64,000 nt of DNA from Microgenomates group bacterium Gr01-1014_5 (lineage in GTDB: Bacteria > Patescibacteriota > Microgenomatia > UBA8517 > UBA10165). Made by a program: the position numbers and the translations under genes. Position 1 is the stretch's first letter, and every line of letters begins with the position of its first letter. Below, in pieces: positions 1 through 30,872 of this stretch. The stretch lies in NCBI GenBank assembly GCA_007376395.1, contig VMGE01000001.1, forward strand, positions 89,635 to 153,634, given 5' to 3'. The notes under the pieces are model-generated. The model was not told the origin of the DNA and searched no databases. It worked only from the letters and a program-made list of their open reading frames with translations.

Positions 1-397
1 TTATCAACGCAAATAAATGCTCTGTGCTTGAATGTACTCCGCCTGTCCCAATTAATCCCAGAAGATGTAGGTTGGAATTATTTTTTTTTGCGTGTTCAAT
101 TGCTGAAATTAGAGTTGTGTTTTTAAAAAAACTTCCGTCAGAAATTGACATGTTGATTCTTAAAAGGTCTTGGTAAACGACACGCCCGGCTCCCAAATTT
201 AAATGTCCGGTTTCAGTATTTCCAACTTCACCTCTCGGCAACCCAACCGCCTCACCTGAAGCCGTAAGAGTGGTGTGCGGATAAGCAGATAAATATGTTT
301 TTAAATTGGGAAGATTTGCCTGACTAATCGCGTTACCAGGAGAAGCGGGAGCTATACCCCAACCGTCAAGAATAATTAATACAACAAAAGGAACCAT
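1..397 (-). CDS. gpmI: 2,3-bisphosphoglycerate-independent phosphoglycerate mutase (iPGM), N-terminal part; the gene runs off the left window edge
   Basis: My minus-strand translation begins MVPFVVLIILDGWGIAPASPGNAI...GEAVGLPRGEVGNTETGHLNLGAGRVVYQDLLRI. This is the classic iPGM N-terminal metal/phosphoserine region. ATG is the reverse complement of 395-397. It is absent from the ORF track because no stop falls inside the window. Confidence 0.8.
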   Translation of the reverse strand, partial: MVPFVVLIILDGWGIAPASPGNAISQANLPNLKTYLSAYPHTTLTASGEAVGLPRGEVGNTETGHLNLGAGRVVYQDLLRINMSISDGSFFKNTTLISAIEHAKKNNSNLHLLGLIGTGGVHSSTEHLFALI

Positions 398-484
398 AAA
401 TTCAGATATTCAGACTACCAGATTTCGGATTATCAGATTTTCAGATCTGGATCTCTGGTAATCTGATATCTGGTAATCAGAGGA

Positions 485-1783
485 TTATACTGATTTAGTT
501 TGAGCTAGTTCAGCTTCAACAGTTAGTAGTCTGTTATACTTTGCTGTCCTTTCACCCCGCGCTGGTGCGCCAAATTTTACAAAATCTGCTTTTACCCCAA
601 CTGCAAAATCAGCAATATACCAGTCGTTAGTTTCTCCGGAACGGTGCGAAACTATTACTTTCCATCCGGCTTCACGGGACATGCGGATAACTTCTAGAGT
701 TTCTGTTATCGTACCTATTTGATTAGGTTTGACTAAAATTGCGTTACACGATTTCTGTTCAATTGCTTTTTTTACTCTTTCAGGATTGGTAACGAGTAAA
801 TCATCACCAACAATTAATATTTGTTGACCGTATTTTTCTGTTAGCAGCTTCCAACCTTCCCAGTCTTCTTCCTGTAAAGGATCTTCCAAAAGGGTTAATT
901 TATATTCCTTGGTTATTTCTTCAAAGTAATCTATCAGGTTTGTAGAACTTAGCGAATTTGAACGATCTCTAATGGTGTACGCACCATCTTTAAAAATAAT
1001 ATTTGCCGCCACATCGAGTCCAAGAAAAAAATCAGAACCAATTTGATATTGAGCGTTCCCAATCGCTTCAAGATTAATCGCCAAAGCGTCTGCGTTGGTA
1101 AAAAGATTCGGCGCGTATCCCCCTTCGTCGCCAACTGAATGAATCGCTCCGCGTTTAATTAAAGATTCGCGGATAAGATAATAAATCTCTGTAGCACCGC
1201 GCAATGCCTCGCTGTAAGGTTTGCTGGTTGCAGGAACAACGAAAAATTCCTGGAAATCAAGATTCCCAGCTCCGTGCAATCCCCCATTAATCATGTTGAA
1301 AATAGGTGTGGGGATTTTTGTTCCTAAATTTTCTTTTGCGGCTCCGGCTGTTGTTGCCAACTTAAAAACCCATTGATAAAGAGACATGTTGGAAGCAAGT
1401 GCTCCTGCTTTATTCACAGTCTGCGAAACAGCAAGAACTGCGTTTGCCCCTAACCGGCTTTTATTTTTACTGCCGTCGGTTTCGATTAATTTTTTATCAA
1501 TTTCCGCTTGTTTTACCGGATCCATACCCACTATTGCTGGTCCAAGCACCTGGTTTACGTTATCTACTGCTTTTAGCACACCTTTTCCGGCAAACCTTTT
1601 TTCGTCACCATCTCTCAACTCCAAAGCTTCAAATTTTCCCACAGAAGCGCCTGACGGAATAGAAGAAACAGCAACTTGACCGGTATCAAGCTGGACTACT
1701 GCTTCAATTGTCGGATAAGCACGGCTATCAAGGATTTCGCGTGCCCATATTCGTGATATTTTTGCCATGTTTGTATCAAACAC
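485..1783 (-). CDS. eno: enolase (phosphopyruvate hydratase)
   Basis: 432 aa. Enolase signature region ...VSHRSGETNDWYIADFAVG... and length are typical. Confidence 0.95.
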   Translation of the reverse strand: MFDTNMAKISRIWAREILDSRAYPTIEAVVQLDTGQVAVSSIPSGASVGKFEALELRDGDEKRFAGKGVLKAVDNVNQVLGPAIVGMDPVKQAEIDKKLIETDGSKNKSRLGANAVLAVSQTVNKAGALASNMSLYQWVFKLATTAGAAKENLGTKIPTPIFNMINGGLHGAGNLDFQEFFVVPATSKPYSEALRGATEIYYLIRESLIKRGAIHSVGDEGGYAPNLFTNADALAINLEAIGNAQYQIGSDFFLGLDVAANIIFKDGAYTIRDRSNSLSSTNLIDYFEEITKEYKLTLLEDPLQEEDWEGWKLLTEKYGQQILIVGDDLLVTNPERVKKAIEQKSCNAILVKPNQIGTITETLEVIRMSREAGWKVIVSHRSGETNDWYIADFAVGVKADFVKFGAPARGERTAKYNRLLTVEAELAQTKSV

Positions 1784-1831: not shown

Positions 1832-4051
1832 TTACTTGTTACTTTTTTCTGCCTCGTATATTACTTTTTGTACTCTGCCTAAAGAATCAGAACTGACAGA
1901 AATACTGCCAATACCCAAGCCAACTAGCTTCTCAATCAGTGTATCATAGACAGAGGCAGCCGAGCCGCAAATAGAAGTTTCGATTTTGTATTTTTTACAA
2001 GCTTTAACAACCTTTTCTAGAGCCCAGAATACTGCGGGGCTTAATTCGTTATACGCCGCCCTAACGTCATTATTATCCCGGTCTGTACCTAAAAGTAACA
2101 TTGTTAGGTCATTAGATCCAAACGAAACTCCGTCAATTCCTGTTCTTAGAAAATCTTCAATCATAATTACATTAATCGGCAATTCGATCATCATCCATAA
2201 TTTAAAACTGGCTCCGCGGTATAAACCTGCGGCGGCCATAATTCTTTTTACATGCAATAATTCTTCTGGCGAGCGGACATAAGGAATCATCATGTGTAAG
2301 TTTTTGTATTTTTCGCGGACGCTGCGCACGGCGGCAAGTTCAAGTTCAAACACCTCAGGGTCTGCGATGTAGCGGAAAGCGCCTCTAAAACCGAGCATGG
2401 GGTTGTCTTCTTCCGGCTCGTATGTTTTCCCTCCCTGCAAATTTCTATATTCGTTTGATTTAAAATCAGTTGCTCTATAAATTACCGGACGCGGGTTAAA
2501 CGCCAAACAAAACTTTTCAATTCCCTCTTTGAGTTTATCTACATATTCTTTTTGTCTTCCTTGCGCAATAACATGACGCGGATGCACCCCAAACTCAGAA
2601 ATCATAAACTCTGCACGTAATAAACCTATTCCAGCCGAAGGAAGTTTTGCTGCCTCTTTTGCTTCTTCGGGTTCAGCAAGGTTCAGGTAAATTTTAGTGA
2701 CAGTTTTAATTTCCTGATTCGGTTTAATTTCCACTTCCAGCTGCTTTTCTTGTTTTTGTTCAGTTTTCCAAGTACTTTCAGTAACTTCACCGTTATTTCC
2801 GTTGAGTGTAACCACCACGCCATCTTTGAGTTTTCTTGTTGCGTTGTCTACTCCAACAACACATGGTATCCCGAGCTCCCGCGTAATAAGCGCGGCATGA
2901 GAAGTGACTCCGCCTTGGTTTGTTACAACTCCTCCAGCAAGCTTAAAAAATGGTATTAGATCAGGAGTTATTTTTTCAAAAACCAGAATCTCTCCTTTTT
3001 TTACTTTTGACAAATCTTTTCTAGATTTAATAATCCTAACATGACCTTTGACTATTCCTGGACTCGCCCCTTGACCTTTTAGTAAAACAGCTTTTGGCTT
3101 GCGGCTTTCAATTGCCAGCTGGTTGCTGTCTGCCATCTGCTGACTGGTTGTTGTTACCGGGCGTGCATGTAAAATATAAAATTGACCGTGAGAAAAGGCC
3201 CACTCAATATCCTGAGGAAAATAATAGTGGGCATGCACCATTTGTAAAATTTTAGCTAAACTTGTAATCTGGTCGACGGTAAGTTTTTGCTTTTTTTGTT
3301 TGCGTGCTGATACCCTTTTAGTGTGTACTGTGTTGCCTGTAAGCACGAGCTGGTATTTTTGGGGCGAGACAGAAATACTTTCTATTTTTAACGAATGTCT
3401 TTCTACTAAATACTTATCAGGAGAAATTTGACCAGAAGTTAAAAGTTCTCCTTGTCCCCAAACGGCTTCAATAAACACTCTGTGTTTATTTCCGTCAGTT
3501 GGATCAATCGTAAAAGCAACACCCGCAGACTCTGCTTCCACCATCTTTTGCACAATAATCGCCACGCCAGCTCCAGTTGACCAGTATTTTTTAACAGTCT
3601 CCAATAAACTGGCTTCTCCTTGAATATTTAGGGAAGTATTTAAATGCCCAAGCGCGTTGGATTTTGCGCTATCTTGACTAACCAGTGATGGACGGACTGC
3701 GACATGTGCTTGTTTAAAAAGTCCTCCTAGTTTGCCGTATGCTTCTAAAATCTCCTCTTTAAGCTCTTTAGGGAAGTTTGCTTTTTGAATAAGTCTTGAG
3801 AAATTACTTGAGGCAGACTGCGTCTCTTTAATATTTTCTTTGTTTACAGTTTTCGCTATGTCTCTGAGAGTTTTATTTAGGTTATTTTGCTCAATAAAAT
3901 CCTCAAAAGCGCGAGGGCTAATCACAAAGCCTTGAGGAATAGGAAAACCTAATTGCGCCATTTCTGAGAGGCTGACAGCTTTCGGGCCTACTTCCTGAGC
4001 GTTATCACTCTCAATTTCTTCAAATCCAAAAATGTACTTAAGTTTAGACAT
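1832..4051 (-). CDS. ppsA: phosphoenolpyruvate synthase / pyruvate,water dikinase family (PEP-utilising enzyme)
   Basis: 739 aa. Phospho-His mobile-domain motif GGVTSHAALITRELGIPCVVG (compare E. coli PpsA [21 protein letters not shown]) and a C-terminal PEP-utilising TIM-barrel region (GSNDLTM). Assignment to PpsA rather than PPDK is by motif similarity and length only. Confidence 0.7.
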   Translation of the reverse strand: MSKLKYIFGFEEIESDNAQEVGPKAVSLSEMAQLGFPIPQGFVISPRAFEDFIEQNNLNKTLRDIAKTVNKENIKETQSASSNFSRLIQKANFPKELKEEILEAYGKLGGLFKQAHVAVRPSLVSQDSAKSNALGHLNTSLNIQGEASLLETVKKYWSTGAGVAIIVQKMVEAESAGVAFTIDPTDGNKHRVFIEAVWGQGELLTSGQISPDKYLVERHSLKIESISVSPQKYQLVLTGNTVHTKRVSARKQKKQKLTVDQITSLAKILQMVHAHYYFPQDIEWAFSHGQFYILHARPVTTTSQQMADSNQLAIESRKPKAVLLKGQGASPGIVKGHVRIIKSRKDLSKVKKGEILVFEKITPDLIPFFKLAGGVVTNQGGVTSHAALITRELGIPCVVGVDNATRKLKDGVVVTLNGNNGEVTESTWKTEQKQEKQLEVEIKPNQEIKTVTKIYLNLAEPEEAKEAAKLPSAGIGLLRAEFMISEFGVHPRHVIAQGRQKEYVDKLKEGIEKFCLAFNPRPVIYRATDFKSNEYRNLQGGKTYEPEEDNPMLGFRGAFRYIADPEVFELELAAVRSVREKYKNLHMMIPYVRSPEELLHVKRIMAAAGLYRGASFKLWMMIELPINVIMIEDFLRTGIDGVSFGSNDLTMLLLGTDRDNNDVRAAYNELSPAVFWALEKVVKACKKYKIETSICGSAASVYDTLIEKLVGLGIGSISVSSDSLGRVQKVIYEAEKSNK

Positions 4052-4140
4052 GGGACAGTAGTAATATCATTTTAGGCTAAGCGAATCCAAATTTCTACTA
4101 ATTTGCATCATACATGAGATAGCAGTATATTAGCGGGAGT

Positions 4141-4668
4141 ATGGCCATAGGTCCCAGTAAAGAACAAGATTCACTTTTCTATTTTGAATCAGAAGTTAGC
4201 TCAATGCCCTTTTTTTCAGTAAGAAACAGATTTCTTCAAGCCACAGATGACGCGTATCGACGAGCATGTGCGAGGAGATTAGCACAACTAGTAGAAAATG
4301 ATCGCTACGCGCGTTCTTGGCTGGAGGATTTTACTGGCGGCGCAAGAGCACTGGTAACCGATTCTGAAAGTTTGGTGCTATTACTTGCTCCATACAATAC
4401 AAATGCTTCTCGTCAAGAAATTTCCACCCTTTACAGTTTATTCGCGAGTTATACCCGAAAAGTAGATTCAAAAAAATTAATTGCTATTGCTCAAATGGGA
4501 AGTATTTTTTCAAAATGGCAAGATCACCTACTTCCCGCTCAACGTTTTGAGATTGCAGAGAGGCTAGGGAGGATAGTGCTTTTAAACCAAAAAGAGCTCT
4601 TTGATACTCCTGATATTACTGCTTCCATGCGTGAGGCAACAAGGAAGCTTATGGGTGTAGCCTACTAA
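4141..4668 (+). CDS. hypothetical protein (175 aa); one of very few plus-strand genes in the left half
   Basis: ORF only; no motif recognised. Confidence 0.4.
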   Translation: MAIGPSKEQDSLFYFESEVSSMPFFSVRNRFLQATDDAYRRACARRLAQLVENDRYARSWLEDFTGGARALVTDSESLVLLLAPYNTNASRQEISTLYSLFASYTRKVDSKKLIAIAQMGSIFSKWQDHLLPAQRFEIAERLGRIVLLNQKELFDTPDITASMREATRKLMGVAY

Positions 4669-5763: not shown

Positions 5764-5820
5764 ATAATCCGATTGGTTCTATAATCCGATTGGTTCTATA
5801 ATCCGATTGGTTCTATAATA
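5764..5820. repeat. three perfect tandem copies of the 17-bp unit ATAATCCGATTGGTTCT plus a 6-nt partial copy
   Basis: Read directly: copies at 5764-5780, 5781-5797 and 5798-5814, then ATAATA. The array covers the last two codons and stop (TAG, reverse complement of 5813-5815) of the HAD gene. It ends 5 nt before the PGI/PMI ATG (reverse complement of 5757-5759). Confidence 0.9.
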
Positions 5821-6586
5821 ACTCTAAAAGTCTGTCAACAACTTCTTCTCCTCCCAAATTAAGTTTGCCTTCGGTGTGATAATGCGCTTCCATGTGTGTG
5901 GGGTCGGTTGTCACCCCAATTCCTGCTATCTTTACCATAGGCGTGTCGTTCGGGTCATTGCCGATTGCCATAGTTTCTTCAATTGTAATTCCTAAACGGT
6001 CGCACAAAAAGCGCAAACCCGAACCTTTGTTAAAACGCCGTAAATAAATGTCATAAGCCTCATTACTCACCCAATTAACAGCAATTTCTTCTTCAGGGTC
6101 GTGCTTTTTAACAATCTCTTCAATTTGCGAGTCTGGTTGGCGACAATGGACACTAATAATAAATTGCTTCGGCTCAAAGCCTTTGATGTTTTCATTTTTA
6201 CGGCTGTATTCAACCAGGTCTGTGCGGATATCTTCGAGTTTTTCTAATTCTTCTTTTGTTAGCGCTGCTTGTTGTAAAATCTCTCCGTTAATTAAAGTAA
6301 GCAATCCGTTTTCTCCCTGTAAGCTGGCGTTTTCCCATAGTACGGGGCTAAACATGTAGTTTAAATAGAGCAGATTACGACCGGAAGAAAAATTAACTTT
6401 AAAGCTCTTTTTAAGTTTTCCTATCTTAACCAGCATTTCCGGTGAAATAACTTTCGACTTAACTGTTAACACCCCGTCTTTTTCCAGTACTTGGGTTCCG
6501 CGCTCAATTGCTACGCCGTCGGCATCAAAGGAGATAAGTTTGATATTTTCTATGTCGCGGGCGATAAGCTGGGAGATAGGTTCCAT
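5813..6586 (-). CDS. HAD-IIB (Cof-type) sugar-phosphate phosphatase family
   Basis: 257 aa. N-terminal FDADGV (DxDG motif I) and C-terminal AIGNDPNDTPM (motif IV). Confidence 0.6.
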   Translation of the reverse strand: MEPISQLIARDIENIKLISFDADGVAIERGTQVLEKDGVLTVKSKVISPEMLVKIGKLKKSFKVNFSSGRNLLYLNYMFSPVLWENASLQGENGLLTLINGEILQQAALTKEELEKLEDIRTDLVEYSRKNENIKGFEPKQFIISVHCRQPDSQIEEIVKKHDPEEEIAVNWVSNEAYDIYLRRFNKGSGLRFLCDRLGITIEETMAIGNDPNDTPMVKIAGIGVTTDPTHMEAHYHTEGKLNLGGEEVVDRLLELL

Positions 6587-6653
6587 AAGTTTATACTATG
6601 CTGGCTACAATAACATGTCAATACAAGACAGCATATAAAATGCGTAGCGTTTT

Positions 6654-7340
6654 CTATAGATAGGCAACCAGAAGATCAAGTGAAGCTTCTAAATTTTCAG
6701 GAAGCTGGGATCTTTTATTTTTACGGTCTAGTTCGAGGAGTTGCTTGTGAATTCTCAATAGTTTGTCCGACGTAAAATTTTTTGCCTGTTTTTCAAGATT
6801 CCGTTTTTGCCAATCTGGTAATTTTAAGTTTTTAGAATCTGTTAGTAAACAGTAGAGAAGTCTTATTTGTCTGGAAAGCATAATTACCAACATATCCGGA
6901 GAGTTTTCTCTCTTAGCCTTTTGTAACAGCCGCAGTGAGTGTTTTGCATTTCCGGGGATAAAAGAGTCTAGAAAATTAAACAGGATTTTAGGAATCTTAA
7001 ACTCCTCTATTTGTAAATATTTTGCTAAAGAACGCGCGGTTTGCGGTGCAAGAGTTTTCGATTCCCAAAAAAGGAAAGCTGTCTGCGGGTTTGGTTTATC
7101 CAGCAATTCTTTAACTAATTGAACTGCCTTTTTATTGTTTGAAAAATAGTTTTCAACTACTAAAAAGTTCCCTGAGCCAAACATTGAAGCAGTACCCGAT
7201 ATAGTATTTAGATCAATTTTATCTTCCGGTCCGTCTAGTCTAACTATTTCCCAGCCCTGTGTTTCTGCCTGAGAGATAAGTAAAGATAATTTTTTTCTTG
7301 ATTCTGGATGGTTTTCGCCGTGCAATAAATAAGAGTTCAT
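6654..7340 (-). CDS. holA: DNA polymerase III delta subunit-like (HolA), short form
   Basis: 228 aa. Starts MNSYLLHGEN as HolA proteins typically do, with a C-terminal helical region (LSRQIRLLYCLL...). Low-complexity similarity only. Confidence 0.45.
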   Translation of the reverse strand: MNSYLLHGENHPESRKKLSLLISQAETQGWEIVRLDGPEDKIDLNTISGTASMFGSGNFLVVENYFSNNKKAVQLVKELLDKPNPQTAFLFWESKTLAPQTARSLAKYLQIEEFKIPKILFNFLDSFIPGNAKHSLRLLQKAKRENSPDMLVIMLSRQIRLLYCLLTDSKNLKLPDWQKRNLEKQAKNFTSDKLLRIHKQLLELDRKNKRSQLPENLEASLDLLVAYL

Positions 7341-7786
7341 TTTGTTTTTTTAGTCCGTAACATATTAACGTAAACTTCCCGCACTACTCTATCATTCACT
7401 CCCCCTTTATGCCGGTGGGGGACAAGTGCACCGGAAAACGATTTGGGTATATGTAAAAGCTCGTGGATTATAACCATTTCCTGCTGTTCAGAAGTGAGTC
7501 TGTCAAACTTTTCCGAGACAGCCTCAATTACATAAGCAGGCTCTATCTTTAGTGCTTGCTGGAAAATTCTTCCCAACCCCCAAATTCTGGCATATGCTCT
7601 AGTTTTTGCTCCAGTTGAAACGTAACAATAAACTCTCTTTGGATTTATATGCGTAAGGTTACAGGAGATTATGAGGTTAGAAATTCTTTTTTCTAGTTCT
7701 ACAGAATCAAGCCATAAAAGCTGTTCTCTTTTTTTAACCCTTCGGACTTTTCGTACTTTAGGAAACCTTAAAAACTTCAGCGCCAT
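7337..7786 (-). CDS. predicted HExxH zinc metallopeptidase-like protein
   Basis: 149 aa with VIIHELLHIPKSFSGALVPH (HExxH plus a downstream His). Confidence 0.4.
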   Translation of the reverse strand: MALKFLRFPKVRKVRRVKKREQLLWLDSVELEKRISNLIISCNLTHINPKRVYCYVSTGAKTRAYARIWGLGRIFQQALKIEPAYVIEAVSEKFDRLTSEQQEMVIIHELLHIPKSFSGALVPHRHKGGVNDRVVREVYVNMLRTKKTK

Positions 7787-26417: not shown

Positions 26418-26957
26418 ATGGCTGAATCTACCGACAAAGACGAACGAATAAACCCTGCGATTACCTATGCTGTAAAAGCCGGGAAAGAGATCACTCCTGA
26501 AGATATAGCTGGAATAGAAAATATGGCTGAAGAAGCAGTCACCACATTTAACACGCTTAAACACCAAGGAAAAATACCCAACAGTGTTGATTTTGGACCG
26601 ACTACACACATCTTCGCATACAAAGCGTTAAAAAACCCAAACAGCGACTTTTGTGCTGCCTTTGCCTACGATAACGGACACGTCGTCGGATATAGAATTA
26701 TCCCAATTAAAAAAGAGACTAGAGGCATCTCTAGTAGCTATCTTGGAGTAGCCATAACCCACCAACGCCGTGGAATAGCTTCAAAATTAGTTACGGAAAC
26801 TCATAAAAAGCTAGTTGAAATGGGGATACGCTCCTATGAGACCATTGCCGTTGCAGAAGTTTTAGAACTTTACAAAAAAGCAGGCGTTGAGTTTACAGTC
26901 CTTGAACCTCCCGGGTCTTACCACACTGAAGGGTATAAAATTAACGTAACCCTTTAA
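26418..26957 (+). CDS. GNAT-family N-acetyltransferase
   Basis: VAITHQRRGIASKLV is a GNAT motif A-like acetyl-CoA loop; 179 aa. Confidence 0.55.
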   Translation: MAESTDKDERINPAITYAVKAGKEITPEDIAGIENMAEEAVTTFNTLKHQGKIPNSVDFGPTTHIFAYKALKNPNSDFCAAFAYDNGHVVGYRIIPIKKETRGISSSYLGVAITHQRRGIASKLVTETHKKLVEMGIRSYETIAVAEVLELYKKAGVEFTVLEPPGSYHTEGYKINVTL

Positions 26958-27133
26958 CCCTCGAGTTGTTTTTTAAGTTCTTCGAGAGTGTGTTTTTTGG
27001 CTTCTTCTTTCGTCATTCCCCACTCTTTAGCCATTTTATCAAAATCTTCCTCGGTCAAGGACGCTCCGCCTTGAGAAAGCGTACCTTTACCCATATCGTC
27101 ATCAGGCATTCCGCAACCGCAGTTGTAACACAT
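26954..27133 (-). CDS. small Cys-rich protein (59 aa), not in the ORF track
   Basis: My translation is MCYNCGCGMPDDDMGKGTLSQGGASLTEEDFDKMAKEWGMTKEEAKKHTLEELKKQLEG. A perfect SD GAAAGGAGGTG sits 7 nt before the ATG (reverse complement of 27131-27133). It overlaps the convergent GNAT stop. Confidence 0.55.
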   Translation of the reverse strand: MCYNCGCGMPDDDMGKGTLSQGGASLTEEDFDKMAKEWGMTKEEAKKHTLEELKKQLEG

Positions 27134-27204
27134 ATAAACACCTCCTTTCAGTCAGTGAATTTCTAATTTCTAATTTTTAATTTCTAAACCTATGGTATAT
27201 TGTT

Positions 27205-27939
27205 ATGTATTCAATGCAAGAATTCAAGGTGAAATTAACGGACAAACGTCAAGAGGCTTCGGGTACAAAAACTTTTCTCTTCGAAAAGCCGAAGGACTTC
27301 GAATATATCGCAGGACAATACGCTTATTTCACCCTTCCTGAGTTAAAATTCCCGGATCCGAGAGGTAAAATCCGCCATTTTACGCTTTCTTCTTCACCTA
27401 CTGAAGATTATTTAAGTATCACAGTCAGAATGCGTAAAGAAAGCGGTTATAAAATGACGCTTGACTCGCTACCTTTGGGAGCAAAAATTGATTTCCGTGG
27501 ACCGACTGGAGACTTTGTAGTTGATGAGACAGACACAAGAACTCAGGTTATGATTGCAGGTGGTATTGGCATCACTCCTTACCGCAGTATTATAAAAGAC
27601 GTTTCCGACCGCGCCCTTCCAAACTCAATCCATCTGATTTATGCTAACTCACGGGTTGAAGAAATTACTTTTAGAGATGAATTAACTCAAATTTCTGAAT
27701 CCCATCCAAACATCAAAGTTTCCATGACTGTCTCCAATCCCGATGAAAACAAAGAACCCTGGCTCGGCCTCACCGGTCGCATAGATGAAAAGCTCCTCCA
27801 ATCTCTAACCTCTAGCCTCCAAAATCCAGTTTTCTGGCTTTGTGGTCCACCCGCAATGGTTCAGGCTTTAGAAGAAGTCCTAGAACAACTCAGGATTCCT
27901 CAAGAACGAATAAAAATAGAAAAGTTTAGTGGATATTAG
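27205..27939 (+). CDS. FNR-like FAD/NAD(P)-binding oxidoreductase (ferredoxin/flavodoxin reductase family)
   Basis: RHFTLSSSP (RxYS FAD motif) and MIAGGIGITP (GGxGxxP NAD(P) motif); 244 aa. Confidence 0.65.
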   Translation: MYSMQEFKVKLTDKRQEASGTKTFLFEKPKDFEYIAGQYAYFTLPELKFPDPRGKIRHFTLSSSPTEDYLSITVRMRKESGYKMTLDSLPLGAKIDFRGPTGDFVVDETDTRTQVMIAGGIGITPYRSIIKDVSDRALPNSIHLIYANSRVEEITFRDELTQISESHPNIKVSMTVSNPDENKEPWLGLTGRIDEKLLQSLTSSLQNPVFWLCGPPAMVQALEEVLEQLRIPQERIKIEKFSGY

Positions 27940-27996
27940 CCTCATTTGACGTATTTATCCCTTGACGTCATGTAATATTTATGATTTTCTGAGGCT

Positions 27997-28482
27997 ATGA
28001 AAGAATATTTCAGCCTCGGTACTTTCCTCAAAACCTACAAAGATGATGAAGCTTGTTTAGACCACATAAAAGAAATTAAATATCCAGCTGGTGTTTTTTG
28101 TGAGAAATGCCAAAAGATAACTAATTTTACCAAAATTAAAGATAGACCTGTTTATCAATGGTCTTGCGGATATCAGATATCTCCTCTAGCCGGAACTATC
28201 TTTGCAAAAACTACTACACCCTTACAGTTTTGGTTCTATGCAGTATTTATCATGACCCAAACTCGTTCTGGAGTTTCTGCTAAGCAATTACAAAGAGAGC
28301 TTGGTGTAACTTACAAAACATCCTGGAGAATGTTTAAACAAATAAGAATACTCATGGCAAATGCGAATAAAGGTGGGGAACCTTTAGATGGGATTGTTGA
28401 AATAGATGAAACATATATAGGAGGAAGGATAAAACGTAAAGGCGTTTGGGCTGGAGGTATAACAATAGGAAATATCAGGTAA
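27997..28482 (+). pseudogene. N-terminal fragment of an IS1595/ISXO2-like transposase (Zn-ribbon plus beginning of catalytic domain); truncated
   Basis: Cys/His-rich Zn-ribbon (CEKCQK...CGYQ) and VEIDETYIGG motif typical of IS1595-family transposases. It stops at 161 aa (full length is about 300 aa) and no DDE core follows. Confidence 0.5.
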
Positions 28483-28560
28483 GATGTTCGAGTTGTTACT
28501 GGGAGAGATAGCGAATGTTAAAGTATTAAAACAAATAAAAACAACTTAGAATTAGCGGGG

Positions 28561-29160
28561 TTATTTCTTGATGCTAATATCAGCAGGATCAAACATTACT
28601 GTAGCCGGGAAAGGCTTTTCTCCTTTATCCATTTTATCCATAAACTTAACTCCTTTGTAACCTAGTTCGTTGAGAACTTTCTCAACCTCTGGCCAAAACT
28701 GATCCAATCTTTCTGTGTTTTGGTAGGCAAACACTCTCCTGATTGCTTCAAAGTAATGTTCTGCCAACTCAGCATGGCCATTCCTTTCAAGCCAGCCTGC
28801 TAAAGCAAAATTCTGATCTCCTTTTGGAACAGCAACACCATTAAGGATGCTCATTGCATAAGTGCTAGTATCCTCATTTGTGATATCTAAAACTTTAGCC
28901 TGTGGATTAATAGTTACTTCCAGTTGAGTTTGACCTATCCCGCTTTCTTCCGGTAATAACTCTGGCGTTTCTTTTAAAAATACTCCTCTAATTGGTCCTT
29001 CAACCCCATTATTTCCTCCTGCAGTTTTTTCTCTTGCAAAGCCACCTTGTATTATAGCTTCGACATTTTCTGGGGCTGTTTGATGATAATAAGTTCGTGT
29101 TACTTCTTGCTCTGGTGCAGTTAATACAACACCCATTTCTTGGAGACCAACGTCAGCCAT
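28561..29160 (-). CDS. hypothetical protein (199 aa), third gene of the NYN operon
   Basis: No confident motif. The N-terminal YHQT...I..GGF segment is weakly reminiscent of H-Y-E-class ADP-ribosyltransferase starts; speculative. Confidence 0.4.
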   Translation of the reverse strand: MADVGLQEMGVVLTAPEQEVTRTYYHQTAPENVEAIIQGGFAREKTAGGNNGVEGPIRGVFLKETPELLPEESGIGQTQLEVTINPQAKVLDITNEDTSTYAMSILNGVAVPKGDQNFALAGWLERNGHAELAEHYFEAIRRVFAYQNTERLDQFWPEVEKVLNELGYKGVKFMDKMDKGEKPFPATVMFDPADISIKK

Positions 29161-29181
29161 GCTTTATTTATACCATAAATT

Positions 29182-29355
29182 TTAATCACTCTTTTTATCA
29201 AATGGTTCTTGTTTAGTACCTTCTTCTATTAGTTTGTTAAATACTTTCTTATTTGCTGTTTCTTTTTCTATTGTTTCGTGTAGTTTTTTGTCTTGTGGGT
29301 TTTTATTGTGACGTTTTTTTATTTCTTTTAATGTTAATGGTTTAAATCCTTTCAT
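29182..29355 (-). CDS. small Lys-rich protein (57 aa), not in the ORF track
   Basis: My translation is MKGFKPLTLKEIKKRHNKNPQDKKLHETIEKETANKKVFNKLIEEGTKQEPFDKKSD. Its start lies 4 nt after the NYN gene stop. Confidence 0.4.
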   Translation of the reverse strand: MKGFKPLTLKEIKKRHNKNPQDKKLHETIEKETANKKVFNKLIEEGTKQEPFDKKSD

Positions 29356-29358
29356 AGT

Positions 29359-29892
29359 TTATTTACCAAATTTTAGAATCTGATTTTTCTTGAGTATTAA
29401 GTATGACGAGCCGTTTTTAGAAAGAGCTCGACTGATGAAATTCTCAAATCCGACATAGACAATTTTCTTGCCTTCATCTTTAGCAGTCTGGATTGCTGGG
29501 AGAAGATCGGTGTCTGAAGAAATAAGATAACAGATGTCATATTCATTTTTAATAGCACCTCTGACAATATCTACTGCAATTTGTACATCAACGCCTTTCT
29601 CATGAAATTTTCCATCTGACATTAATAAATACCCCAATTTGATTTCGATATCCTGATTTCTTAAATGGGTGAATAGTTTTTGTTGCCCAGCATACAAAGT
29701 TTCAGACTTTTTATTCCCATCAAATTGCCTAATTTCACCGGTATAATATACTACTTTGTTTGGTTTGGCCTTGGTAATTGATTTGACTAAGCCAATATAA
29801 TCAAAGGTTGTAAGGTGGAGATTCCGATCAATCCTCTTTACCTTATTGTAGAAATTGCTTCCATCGAATTGAACGAGGATTTTCTTACTCAC
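29359..29892 (-). CDS. NYN/LabA-like (PIN-superfamily) predicted RNase
   Basis: VQFDGSNFY, KGVDVQIAVD and SSDTDLLPAI are the conserved acidic motifs of NYN domains; 177 aa. It appears to start with GTG. Confidence 0.75.
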   Translation of the reverse strand: MSKKILVQFDGSNFYNKVKRIDRNLHLTTFDYIGLVKSITKAKPNKVVYYTGEIRQFDGNKKSETLYAGQQKLFTHLRNQDIEIKLGYLLMSDGKFHEKGVDVQIAVDIVRGAIKNEYDICYLISSDTDLLPAIQTAKDEGKKIVYVGFENFISRALSKNGSSYLILKKNQILKFGK

Positions 29893-29923
29893 GCTTTTAT
29901 CTTAGGTTATCTGATAGTCTAAA

Positions 29924-29958
29924 GCAAAAAAAACCCCTAGCTCGAGTTGAACTAGGGG
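29924..29958 (-). terminator. intrinsic-terminator-like hairpin read on the minus strand
   Basis: Minus-strand read is CCCCTAG-(10-nt loop)-CTAGGGG followed by T8-10. It sits immediately upstream (in the transcription sense) of the NYN operon. Confidence 0.45.
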
Positions 29959-30085
29959 GAATTAGGGTTTAATAATACCAAAGATTATTCTAAAATGCAA
30001 GTACATGACGTGTGGTATAAGTGCCTCATTTGGTATAATAATAACGCGCCGTCCCGCTCAGCGGGACAATAGGCACGCAAAGAGT

Positions 30086-30158
30086 GCCGATGTAGCTCAG
30101 TTGGTAGAGCAGTCCCTTCGTAAGGGAAAGATCGGTGGTTCAAGTCCACTCATCGGCT
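30086..30158 (+). tRNA. tRNA-Thr (CGT)
   Basis: GCCGATGTAGCTCAGTTGGTAGAGCAGTCCCTTCGTAAGGGAAAGATCGGTGGTTCAAGTCCACTCATCGGCT. Anticodon loop TTCGTAA. Preceded by a TGGTATAAT extended -10 at 30031-30039 and two small hairpins. Confidence 0.85.
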
Positions 30159-30164
30159 CAAAAC

Positions 30165-30872
30165 ATGATATCTCGACACGCAAGAATACAAGACAAAAAA
30201 GCCACCCGCAGTGGAGTACTTTTGCTTTTTCTCTCGCTTCTTTTACTCGGAGGATTGCTAGTTTTCGGTATTCCCGCTCTGGCTAAATTCGCAGGACTCG
30301 TGGTAAACCTCCAGGGGAGCCAACCTATTGAAAGCGAGGATAAAAACACCCCTGCTCCGCCGGTTTTTTACACCACAGTTCCGAGTAGCGTAAAAGAAGA
30401 AATACTCAAACTTGAAGGCATGGCAGAAGGAGGATCTACTGTATTTGTTTATCTAAACGATGAGAAAGTTAAAGAGTTTGTGGTACCTAATAGCGGTAAT
30501 TTTGACGTTAAACTAACACTGGCCGAGGGCGAAAATCTTATCTGGGCCGTAACCCGAGATCTAGCCGAAAATAAGAGCGGGGAGTCAGGAAGAATTAAGG
30601 TTTCTTATGACAGTCAGGCTCCAATCCTTGAAATTACAGAGCCGGCAGACGCTACCGCTTTTTCAGGTAGCGAAAAATCAATCACAGTCCGCGGAATAAC
30701 AGAAAAAGGTGCCAGGGTTACAGTCAATGACCGCCTGGCTATTGTTTCTCCAGAAGGCGCGTTTTCGCAAAAGGTAACTCTTACAGAGGGCGAGAATATA
30801 ATTTTAGTTACTGTAGTCGACGAAGGAGAGAATGAAACAGAAAAAACGCTGAAGGTGATATACCAGCCTTAA
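30165..30872 (+). CDS. membrane-anchored extracytoplasmic protein with two Ig-like (Big-type) repeats
   Basis: The ORF-track start overlaps the tRNA, so the real start is ATG 30165 (MISRHARIQ...). TM anchor VLLLFLSLLLLGGLLVFGI. Internal repeats ...LAEGENLIWAVTRD... and ...LTEGENIILVTVVD... Confidence 0.5.
   Translation: MISRHARIQDKKATRSGVLLLFLSLLLLGGLLVFGIPALAKFAGLVVNLQGSQPIESEDKNTPAPPVFYTTVPSSVKEEILKLEGMAEGGSTVFVYLNDEKVKEFVVPNSGNFDVKLTLAEGENLIWAVTRDLAENKSGESGRIKVSYDSQAPILEITEPADATAFSGSEKSITVRGITEKGARVTVNDRLAIVSPEGAFSQKVTLTEGENIILVTVVDEGENETEKTLKVIYQP

Follow-up and report, generated by a model that had tools for sequence, protein, structure and literature searches.

A locus at positions 28561-29892 of a 64-kb DNA window from Microgenomates group bacterium Gr01-1014_5, a bacterium of the Candidate Phyla Radiation (CPR), carries three consecutive minus-strand genes for an NYN ribonuclease-type protein, a small basic protein of 57 amino acids (aa) and a protein of 199 aa. 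The window here means the whole 64-kb stretch that was analysed. The locus is probably a mosaic, made up of three units that evolve independently of one another, in a variable spot of the CPR chromosome flanked by an insertion sequence (IS), and not one operon-encoded system. The first unit is the NYN gene with a covariation-supported small RNA unit upstream that is absent from Rfam 15. The second is the 57-aa open reading frame (ORF), and the third is the 199-aa gene, whose product in our reading has the fold of the ADP-ribosyltransferase (ART) superfamily with a canonical active site that is divergent or lost. The initial annotation had taken the three genes for a single operon and a candidate toxin-antitoxin (TA) or defence module beside a transposase fragment. 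Its three ORFs, with their coordinates, their strand and the GTG start of the NYN gene, agree exactly with the ORF table and the sequence, and the adjacent transposase fragment belongs to IS1595 (NF033547). The trio itself did not hold up as a conserved unit: NYN is mostly solo, the small ORF is found in one sub-branch, the 199-aa family occurs elsewhere, and no other locus has all three genes. The trio is a member of no known multi-gene system. The features of the three units are listed below; loci used for comparison are given by L numbers and protein relatives by P numbers.

29929-30000 (-): small RNA unit 5' of NYN, class A form (covariance model, terminator scan, conservation)
29893-29927 (-): putative NYN promoter (spacing and hexamer variants)
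29359-29892 (-): NYN (LabA-like, PIN-superfamily) ribonuclease-type gene with GTG start, 177 aa (ORF table, Pfam PF01936)
29182-29355 (-): Lys-rich ORF with predicted basic charge, 57 aa (ORF table)
29161-29175 (-): putative extended -10 promoter of the 199-aa gene (box shared with homologues)
28561-29160 (-): stand-alone protein with a predicted ART fold, 199 aa (ORF table, AlphaFold2 model and Foldseek)

On its profile match, the NYN protein is a member of PF01936 (58.9 bits, cut-off 24.2, E=1.1e-15), with residues 5-163 corresponding to model positions 2-140 of 145. The translation contains the motifs QFDGSNFYNK, KGVDVQIAVD and SSDTDLLPA, and five acidic residues (D10, D102, D108, D127 and D129) are invariant in 22 homologues, which bears out the earlier identification of an NYN protein with intact acidic motifs. 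Among these 22 representatives, 69 of the 177 positions are invariant and mean column identity is 81%. Among 5.8 billion proteins searched, there were 1,690 NYN homologues, with 61-89% identity across CPR lineages (70-89% for the top 120), with WWE3, Gottesmanbacteria and Woykebacteria among the source names. The pN/pS ratio (non-synonymous to synonymous differences) against L013 is ~0.1 with synonymous sites saturated, which indicates that the NYN gene is under purifying selection. A profile search of PDB with the NYN family gave no match at E<=0.01.

The full-length Pfam match above threshold places the protein with the NYN/LabA-like PIN-superfamily (PF01936, COG1432; TIGR00288; MARF1-type), and the invariant DGSN, GVD and SSDTD motifs correspond in type to the three metal-binding Asp residues of MARF1, as cited for the PADLOC family HEC-09. 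Unlike other members of these families, the window NYN belongs to a separate CPR subfamily of very tight conservation, carries neither an OST-HTH nor any other fused domain, and has a dedicated small RNA unit upstream together with an apparently leaderless start. NYN/COG1432 proteins are without an established function in bacteria and have been tied by gene neighbourhood to tRNA and rRNA processing (PMC5499597). In PADLOC, the protein matched HEC-09, an Hma-embedded NYN candidate that is similar to it across the whole NYN domain (E=2.9e-13). HEC-09, however, sits within Hma systems and carries an extra N-terminal domain, and no helicase, methylase or ATPase genes are present among the annotated window ORFs at 26418-30872 (~3 kb around the locus). 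When tested, HEC-09 gave no protection against any phage (bioRxiv 10.1101/2024.01.29.577857).

Two exact peptide patterns, searched for in 185,579 species genomes, identified 153 NYN relatives. The 80 loci that were kept, of which ~35 represent the close subfamily, come from Daviesbacteria, Levyibacteriota, Roizmanbacteria, Woesebacteria and other lineages. At ~90 loci in all, NYN stands solo in unrelated neighbourhoods: beside UvrC (L004, L005), between LexA and UvrB (L006-L009) or near a Bro-N protein (L002, L003). No same-strand downstream partner was conserved with NYN among the ~35 distinct close-subfamily loci. A second NYN subfamily, 41-50% identical, is often present as a paralogue within one genome and is without the upstream RNA unit; L017 and L073, for example, share contig JACPKL010000012.1, and further paralogue loci are found among L051-L096. 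In several genomes, the NYN cassette lies directly at DNA-repair or SOS genes (L004:5560-6807; L005:1062-1844; L006-L009:4201-4827 and 5796-7784). This proximity to UvrC and LexA-UvrB may be coincidence or may reflect a link to the damage response.

A further conserved stretch lies on the other side of the gene. In class B loci (defined below), ~110-125 nucleotides (nt) just 3' of the NYN stop codon are strongly conserved (L018:3449-3593, L024:622-766, L022:4544-4688 and ~20 more); the stretch is absent from the window. It showed neither covarying structure nor an Rfam match. A 32-aa ORF within it was rejected as coding, with a pN/pS of 1.16, stop codons and lost starts in several loci, and no frame open throughout.

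Upstream of NYN, ~110 nt are conserved across loci whose flanks are otherwise unrelated, and every close NYN locus contains the block. In most loci (class B), it consists of a putative extended -10 promoter (TGATAATATAAT), a 5' hairpin that varies in sequence and keeps its pairing, a single-stranded linker (TTTGATTTGCTAAYT, conserved in the RNA as UUGCUAAYU), a G/C-clamped hairpin and a T-run. In class A, which comprises the window and its nearest relatives, a putative TTGCAT-N17-TAKTAT promoter stands in place of the 5' hairpin, just before ...CCTAAYT and the terminator hairpin, so that of the RNA unit only the tail and the terminator remain in the window. The candidate promoter there is TTGCAT (30000-29995), a 17-nt spacer and TATTAT (29977-29972), followed by the tail ...CCCTAATT, a G/C-clamped hairpin (29959-29934) and a T8 run (29933-29926); the terminator scan placed the hairpin with its T-run at 29958-29934, with 10 pairs of which 6 are G-C. 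The initial annotation had regarded this hairpin as an insulating terminator. It is a genuine terminator-type hairpin, but instead of being a mere insulator it ends a conserved small transcription unit that is tied to NYN.

A covariance model of the unit (R1) matched the window once in 64 kb (29929-29995(-), 40.9 bits) and found exactly one copy at each close-subfamily NYN locus (38/38). It found no further copy in 694 kb of loci and none beside the distant NYN paralogues. In the first set of sequences, 98.4% of the cells in the alignment were paired and 11 of the 17 pairs were compensatory; slid controls reached 24-62%. For a second, independent set from metagenomes, the figures were 98.3% paired cells and compensatory changes in 9 of the 17 pairs, including all 8 pairs of the 5' hairpin. 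In neither set did any of 500 shuffles reach the observed values. Fitting these alignments to the model biases them towards the structure, with which the slid controls and RNAfold predictions of single sequences also agree. No Rfam 15 family accounts for the unit. The best match, NsiR1 (RF02399), scored 33.1 bits in the window and 21.6 bits in L024 against a gathering score of 39. NsiR1 is similar in its ~60-nt two-hairpin small RNA (sRNA) architecture ending in a terminator; however, it is a cyanobacterial sRNA and its sub-threshold match is driven by the terminator hairpin, and the RNA unit is not a member of that family.

The association of the RNA unit with NYN was also examined from the RNA side. 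Metagenome contigs were scanned with an 18-nt piece of the RNA and the copies were then confirmed by the covariance model, which gave 53 true copies. NYN lies downstream of 48 of these, at an offset of 74-75 nt in 31 of the 48. At L101 and L111, the unit precedes a Gp49 (HigB-like) and HTH_3 pair, and at L131 a HicB and HicA pair; at L117 the NYN gene is degraded, and at L134 a distant NYN paralogue is convergent (offsets 48-581(-)). The gene pairs behind the units in L101 (RNA 1181-1248(-); genes 832-1161(-) and 514-795(-)) and L131 (RNA 1048-1114(+); genes 1164-1442 and 1439-1666) are RNase-type toxin modules. A scan of viral contigs for the RNA motif returned chance 18-mer matches only. Tandem Repeats Finder detected no array in 28400-30200, and the alignments show a single-copy unit.

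Two other roles for the upstream element were considered and rejected. The hairpin is not simply the terminator of an upstream gene: in the window the upstream gene is a divergent tRNA, and across loci the upstream genes vary while the hairpin and promoter persist. Nor was there support for antisense regulation of the NYN mRNA 5' end by the RNA linker, the duplex energies being no better than those of shuffled controls.

Between the T-run and the NYN start codon, the distance is fixed at ~33 nt and the arrangement is constant: TTGCTT, a 17-nt spacer, TAAGAT, 6-7 nt and then ATG or GTG. In the window, TTGCTT (29927-29922) abuts the T-run and TAAGAT (29904-29899) is 6 nt from the GTG. The variants of the second hexamer (TAAGAT, TAGAAT, TATAAT, TACAAT and TAAAAT) are all of the form TAnnnT and do not resemble a Shine-Dalgarno sequence. 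The region thus appears to fit a sigma-70-type promoter with a leaderless NYN mRNA better than a Shine-Dalgarno site. Similar -10-like boxes 6-7 nt before start codons that have no Shine-Dalgarno sequence are seen at NYN, at the 199-aa gene and its homologues in L001, L010 and L012, and at the Gp49 gene of L101. This pattern suggests that leaderless mRNAs, GTG starts included, are common for accessory genes of this kind.

The 57-aa ORF begins 3 nt after the NYN stop codon. A tblastn search found it directly after NYN in L013 (53 aa, 55% identity), L014 (where the contig ends after 14 codons), L017 and L019, and a homologue lies upstream of the 199-aa homologue in L001. Including the window, the ORF follows NYN at 5 of ~90 loci, always with a gap of 1-4 nt. 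Its pN/pS is 0.32-0.48 in frame versus 0.9-1.2 out of frame, and the length difference between copies is an in-frame indel. Searches of Pfam, NCBIfam, PHROGs and PADLOC gave the protein no family. The ORF probably encodes a genuine mini-protein under moderate constraint, with translation coupled to that of NYN. It occurs in a single sub-branch and shows decay in two members, where a premature stop (L017) and a frameshifted end (L019) shorten it to 37 and 47 aa; it therefore cannot be an obligatory antidote, and the obligate pairing of NYN with a small protein as toxin and antitoxin falls away.

The 199-aa protein (N-terminal start ...YYHQTAPENVEAIIQGGF) has no family in Pfam, NCBIfam, PHROGs or PADLOC and is rare; the initial annotation, made from the sequence alone, had recognised no family either. 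A word-seeded search returned only the protein itself and one relative with 83% identity. An exhaustive HMMER scan of 1.84 billion representatives gave eight true relatives, and a profile search added four, so that ~13 relatives are known among 1.84-5.8 billion proteins. Four of the 13 significant HMMER matches (P0129 and P0132-P0134, GBS Bsp-like Streptococcus-type repeat proteins) were judged spurious, their scores being sums of weak repeat matches. The database gene call of one homologue is truncated: P0128 (L011:7725-8384) is annotated as a 127-aa fragment, and in-frame upstream translation gives the full length including YYHQT.

None of the four relatives with readable flanks lies beside NYN. 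In L010, the gene follows a UvrD/PD-(D/E)XK helicase and precedes a PhdYeFM pair; in L011 it lies in a housekeeping-looking region, and in L012 near a Gp49/HTH_3 pair. Conversely, the 80 genome and 48 metagenome NYN loci contained no 199-aa homologue, and tblastn of the protein against 50,697 phage records gave chance matches only. The homologues with upstream sequence (L001, L010 and L012, in unrelated contexts) all have TGnTATAAT or TATAAA 6-7 nt before the ATG, and in the window the extended -10 box TGGTATAAA (29175-29167) is 6 nt before the ATG. The 199-aa gene would accordingly have its own promoter and an independent leaderless transcript, which speaks against the single operon described earlier. 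Its pN/pS against L001 is 0.19, indicating that this gene, too, is under purifying selection.

AlphaFold gave an unusable model from the single 199-aa sequence (pLDDT 40), and AlphaFold2 with a 13-sequence alignment (A3) gave a model with a pLDDT of 78.7 and a pTM of 0.76. In a Foldseek search of PDB, the top 50 matches listed were all of the ART fold with its split beta-sheet, including the ART domains of PARP4 (best E=0.012, probability 0.99), PARP1 and PARP2 and an Xre-RES toxin. Eight matches in BFVD had E<=1e-3 (best 4.4e-5), and several down to E=0.018 were named "ART-PolyVal-like", "PolyVal ADP-ribosyltransferase" or "NAD(+) ADP-ribosyltransferase". The defining residues of ART-PolyVal domains are a strand-1 His, a strand-2 Tyr and a strand-5 Asp (Iyer et al., PMC5512222). 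The family was compared with the ART-PolyVal domain of the Roseovarius phage RPP1 vRNAP (PF18760, E=1e-8) and two relatives as prototypes, and its motifs occur in the same order as in these Pfam-verified domains:

Strand 1: YHGT in the prototypes, [YF]HQ[TS] in the 199-aa family
Strand 2: G[LI]F[FL]T in the prototypes, RG[VI]FLK in the 199-aa family
Before strand 5: FW... in both
Strand 5: G/R-YDG-[AI] in the prototypes, GYxG[VI] in the 199-aa family

The window protein reads YHQT, GVFLK and FW..GYKGV at these places. The [YF]HQ[TS] motif is found in every member that has the N-terminal part and lies inside a predicted strand (24-28). The strand-2 position is Phe, with Tyr only in P0131, and the Pfam-verified phage prototypes also have Phe (GLFFT, GIFLT). 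D92, E125 and D175 are invariant in the family, D175 being six residues downstream of GYxG, and a helical insert of ~50 residues (119-165) is present. The faint resemblance to H-Y-E ADP-ribosyltransferases suggested in the initial annotation is thus supported at the level of the fold, by Foldseek on the AlphaFold2 model, but the canonical strand-5 acidic residue is missing.

The closest known relatives by structure are ART-PolyVal (PF18760) and Tox-ART-HYD2. The family has the C-terminal FW...GYxG[VI] in common with them and, like the prototypes from Roseovarius and Dinoroseobacter phages, YH[QG]T in strand 1 and G-x-F in strand 2. In contrast to these, the 199-aa family is not detected by the Pfam hidden Markov model, has another residue at the defining Asp of strand 5 (GYDG) in 12 of its 13 members, and consists of solo ~195-aa proteins on CPR chromosomal contigs and not of domains in giant virion or conjugation proteins; membership in PF18760 is not established. 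The RES- and PARP-type NAD+-utilising enzymes are similar through the PDB matches to PARP4, PARP1, PARP2 and the Xre-RES toxin, but identity is 7-12%, neither an R-E-S nor an H-Y-E triad is present, and no Xre-type antitoxin adjoins the gene.

The surroundings of the 199-aa gene bear on how it arrived. The IS remnant downstream of it has the following extent:

27955-28527 (+): IS1595-family element remnant that leaves ORF 27997-28482 (NF033547, Zn_ribbon_IS1595, blastn against L013)

This ORF, on the plus strand, matches NCBIfam NF033547 with 79.9 bits (cut-off 75) and has an N-terminal Pfam Zn_ribbon_IS1595 domain. By blastn against the intact 303-aa transposase gene in L013, to which the fragment is 76% identical, 27955-28360 corresponds to the 5' part and 28451-28527 to the 3' end, with ~460 bp between them missing. 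The fragment shares with IS1595 (ISXO2-like) elements the N-terminal zinc ribbon and the beginning of the DDE domain; unlike in those, the ~460-bp internal deletion removes most of the DDE domain, and the copy is therefore a non-autonomous, decayed remnant. No convincing terminal inverted repeats were found for it.

By blastn, the window at 29965-29188 is collinear with L013 over the RNA element, NYN and the small ORF. The slot between the small ORF and the end of the IS holds an unrelated membrane protein of 212 or 268 aa in L013 and L019, of which the one in L013 matches PsbP_2, and the 199-aa cassette in the window. The homology that L001 shares with the window breaks off at 28531, right on the boundary of the IS. 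The slot contents and the synteny breakpoints indicate that the 199-aa gene is a cassette swapped into a recombination-prone slot and not an ancestral member of an operon. Transport of the gene as an IS1595 passenger was rejected, as 27955-28527 encloses the transposase gene at both ends and the L001 homology stops at the IS boundary. Beyond the intact IS1595, L013 has a 614-aa protein (2408-4252 (-)) with no Pfam match that is unrelated to the equivalent position in the window.

From these data, we infer the functions of the parts of the locus as follows. Unit 1 would be a compact, self-contained small RNA and NYN cassette that is spread across many CPR lineages. Its first promoter would give a short RNA ending in the strong intrinsic terminator, and a second promoter right after the terminator would give the NYN mRNA, probably leaderless, with the terminator shielding the RNase gene from upstream read-through. 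The small RNA may regulate or partner the NYN RNase, a predicted PIN-like, metal-dependent enzyme that would cut cellular or invading RNA. Unit 2, the 57-aa basic protein coupled to NYN, would have been gained in one sub-branch as a dispensable accessory. Unit 3 would be a solo ART-fold gene with its own leaderless promoter, structurally related to the ART-PolyVal domains of phages and plasmids and acquired separately, having replaced a PsbP-like membrane-protein gene beside the internally deleted IS1595. Its product keeps the strand-1 His and the strand-2 aromatic residue, without the Asp that is usual in strand 5. It is most likely an NAD+-binding protein that acts as a divergent mono-ADP-ribosyltransferase or an NADase-type accessory effector.

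Several points weigh against this interpretation. The two promoters, the leaderless starts and a transcript of its own for the 199-aa gene are all read from sequence features. The terminator scan detected none between NYN, the 57-aa ORF and the 199-aa gene, so that read-through from NYN into the two genes behind it is possible. A second genome (L001) has the small ORF next to the 199-aa gene, and those two may be functionally linked. The upstream RNA may be either an accumulating sRNA or only an insulating terminator. With regard to the 199-aa protein, the ART assignment draws on a medium-confidence model, the Foldseek TM-scores are modest (0.34-0.50) and the root-mean-square deviations high. 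Sequence profiles do not link the family to ART: the PDB profile search gave chance matches only, and no Pfam match at E<=1 was found for the 13 members. Comparison by hhalign with one and then with three ART-PolyVal prototypes was not significant and aligned only the FW..GYxG segment. The strand-5 Asp is replaced in 12 of 13 members (GY[KQSNGH]G) and kept only in P0138, and with the canonical Asp absent from so many, the protein may be non-catalytic.

These last points are also what a reading of the 199-aa protein as something other than an ART would build on. The fold match would then be an artefact of a shallow alignment, and the protein would have an unrelated function, for example a structural or regulatory one. 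The silence of every sequence and profile method on ART families, the low TM-scores with high deviations, the alignment of only 13 sequences and the absent acidic residue agree with this. It is nevertheless unlikely, given that the top 50 PDB matches listed are uniformly ART-fold with a best probability of 0.99, that the eight BFVD matches at E<=1e-3 are joined by several to E=0.018 with independent ART-PolyVal or ADP-ribosyltransferase annotation, and that YH[QG]T, G[VIL]F[LF][KT] and FW...GYxG[VIA] line up in order with Pfam-verified ART-PolyVal domains. Far less probable still is the operon of the initial annotation, with NYN as toxin, the 57-aa protein as antitoxin or partner and the 199-aa protein as a second effector or immunity factor in a TA or abortive-infection system. 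The tight same-strand spacing (3 nt, then 21 nt from the 57-aa ORF to the 199-aa gene), the lack of a detected terminator in between, the coding character of the small ORF and its coupling to NYN in five loci, its renewed adjacency to the 199-aa gene in L001, the variable IS-flanked setting and the match of NYN to PADLOC models would all be expected of such an operon. However, the trio is present in the window only, and this non-conservation largely refutes it. More than 85% of the NYN loci are without the small ORF, and in L017 and L019 it is shortened, which leaves no essential antidote; the 199-aa family occurs elsewhere without NYN and with a putative promoter of its own; HEC-09 did not defend when tested; and the mean column identity of NYN (81%) is above that usual for toxins, which are usually far less conserved than NYN.

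Two further explanations concern the RNA and NYN cassette itself. It might be a type III-like TA or RNA-controlled defence module, in which excess RNA binds and neutralises NYN and which spreads horizontally among CPR bacteria; we regard this as improbable. The cassette follows the logic of ToxIN in having a putative promoter, a structured RNA, a terminator and an RNase gene at fixed spacing. It also occurs in many unrelated contexts with a G+C content below that of its flanks, its RNA has a conserved single-stranded linker, and the same unit stands before Gp49/HigB-like and HTH_3 and HicB and HicA operons. In these respects, as a compact and apparently mobile cassette, it resembles the type III systems ToxIN, CptIN and TenpIN. 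The resemblance is one of layout only: the RNA is single-copy with no tandem-repeat array, NYN does not have the ToxN-type fold, and a second apparent promoter lies 3' of the terminator. Moreover, the purifying selection, with 61-89% identity across lineages, is stronger than is usual for toxins; class A, to which the window belongs, has no 5' hairpin and little of the linker; a protein antitoxin is already present in the HigBA and HicBA cases; and no signal of pairing between linker and mRNA was seen. Somewhat less improbable, yet still doubtful, is that NYN is a housekeeping enzyme of tRNA, rRNA or mRNA turnover, with the upstream element a cis-acting attenuator or insulator and the neighbours irrelevant. 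Its extreme conservation (69/177 columns invariant, pN/pS ~0.1), the neighbourhood link of NYN/COG1432 proteins to tRNA and rRNA processing (PMC5499597), the adjacent tRNA-Thr in the window and a terminator and promoter architecture compatible with attenuation point in this direction. Against it stand a patchy-looking distribution (153 relatives in 185,579 species genomes, by two exact peptide patterns), the variable and IS-adjacent contexts, the paralogues within the same genomes, the same RNA unit in front of TA operons, and the absence of any conserved linkage to RNA-processing genes in the loci seen. A bolder reading would combine an undescribed RNA-controlled NYN module of the type III-like TA or defence kind, with an RNA that neutralises or guides NYN and a unit shared with HigB and HicA operons, with a 199-aa protein that founds a solo ART clade with a relocated catalytic acid and acts as an NAD+-dependent effector; the probability of this combination appears low.

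The trio being a chance neighbourhood, its entry as a new three-gene defence system is not warranted, and the mosaic neighbourhood itself is ordinary. The RNA and NYN cassette and the solo ART-like family are the parts worth following up. The RNA unit, not in Rfam 15, keeps a fixed distance from NYN, which ranks among the most conserved accessory genes in CPR bacteria of the Microgenomates type, and the unit offers a concrete handle on NYN biology, with regard to regulation and possibly to a substrate or antidote. CPR organisms are not yet easily cultured, and such a handle is useful for that reason. The 199-aa proteins, as a tiny, rare and solo family with a predicted ART fold that resembles the polyvalent ART domains of phages, would bear on the diversification of NAD+-using conflict enzymes and their move into host chromosomes.

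The remaining features of the neighbourhood were as follows. On the other side of the NYN cassette lies a tRNA gene:

30086-30159 (+): tRNA-Thr(CGT), divergent from the NYN cassette (ARAGORN; Rfam tRNA 66.6 bits)

The annotated neighbours among the ORFs at 26418-30872 are, with this tRNA-Thr, an Ig-like protein, an oxidoreductase, a GNAT protein and the IS remnant. The segment of NYN and the small ORF has a G+C content of 31-35% versus 40-45% in the flanks. A 13-nt inverted repeat with 92% complementarity (27932-27944 and 28569-28581) brackets the IS remnant, with its arms inside the 3' ends of the oxidoreductase gene and the 199-aa gene, and is probably due to chance. Between the GNAT and oxidoreductase genes, a 59-aa ORF (26954-27133 (-)) that begins MCYNCGCGMPDDDMGKG encodes a small, Cys-rich, acidic protein.

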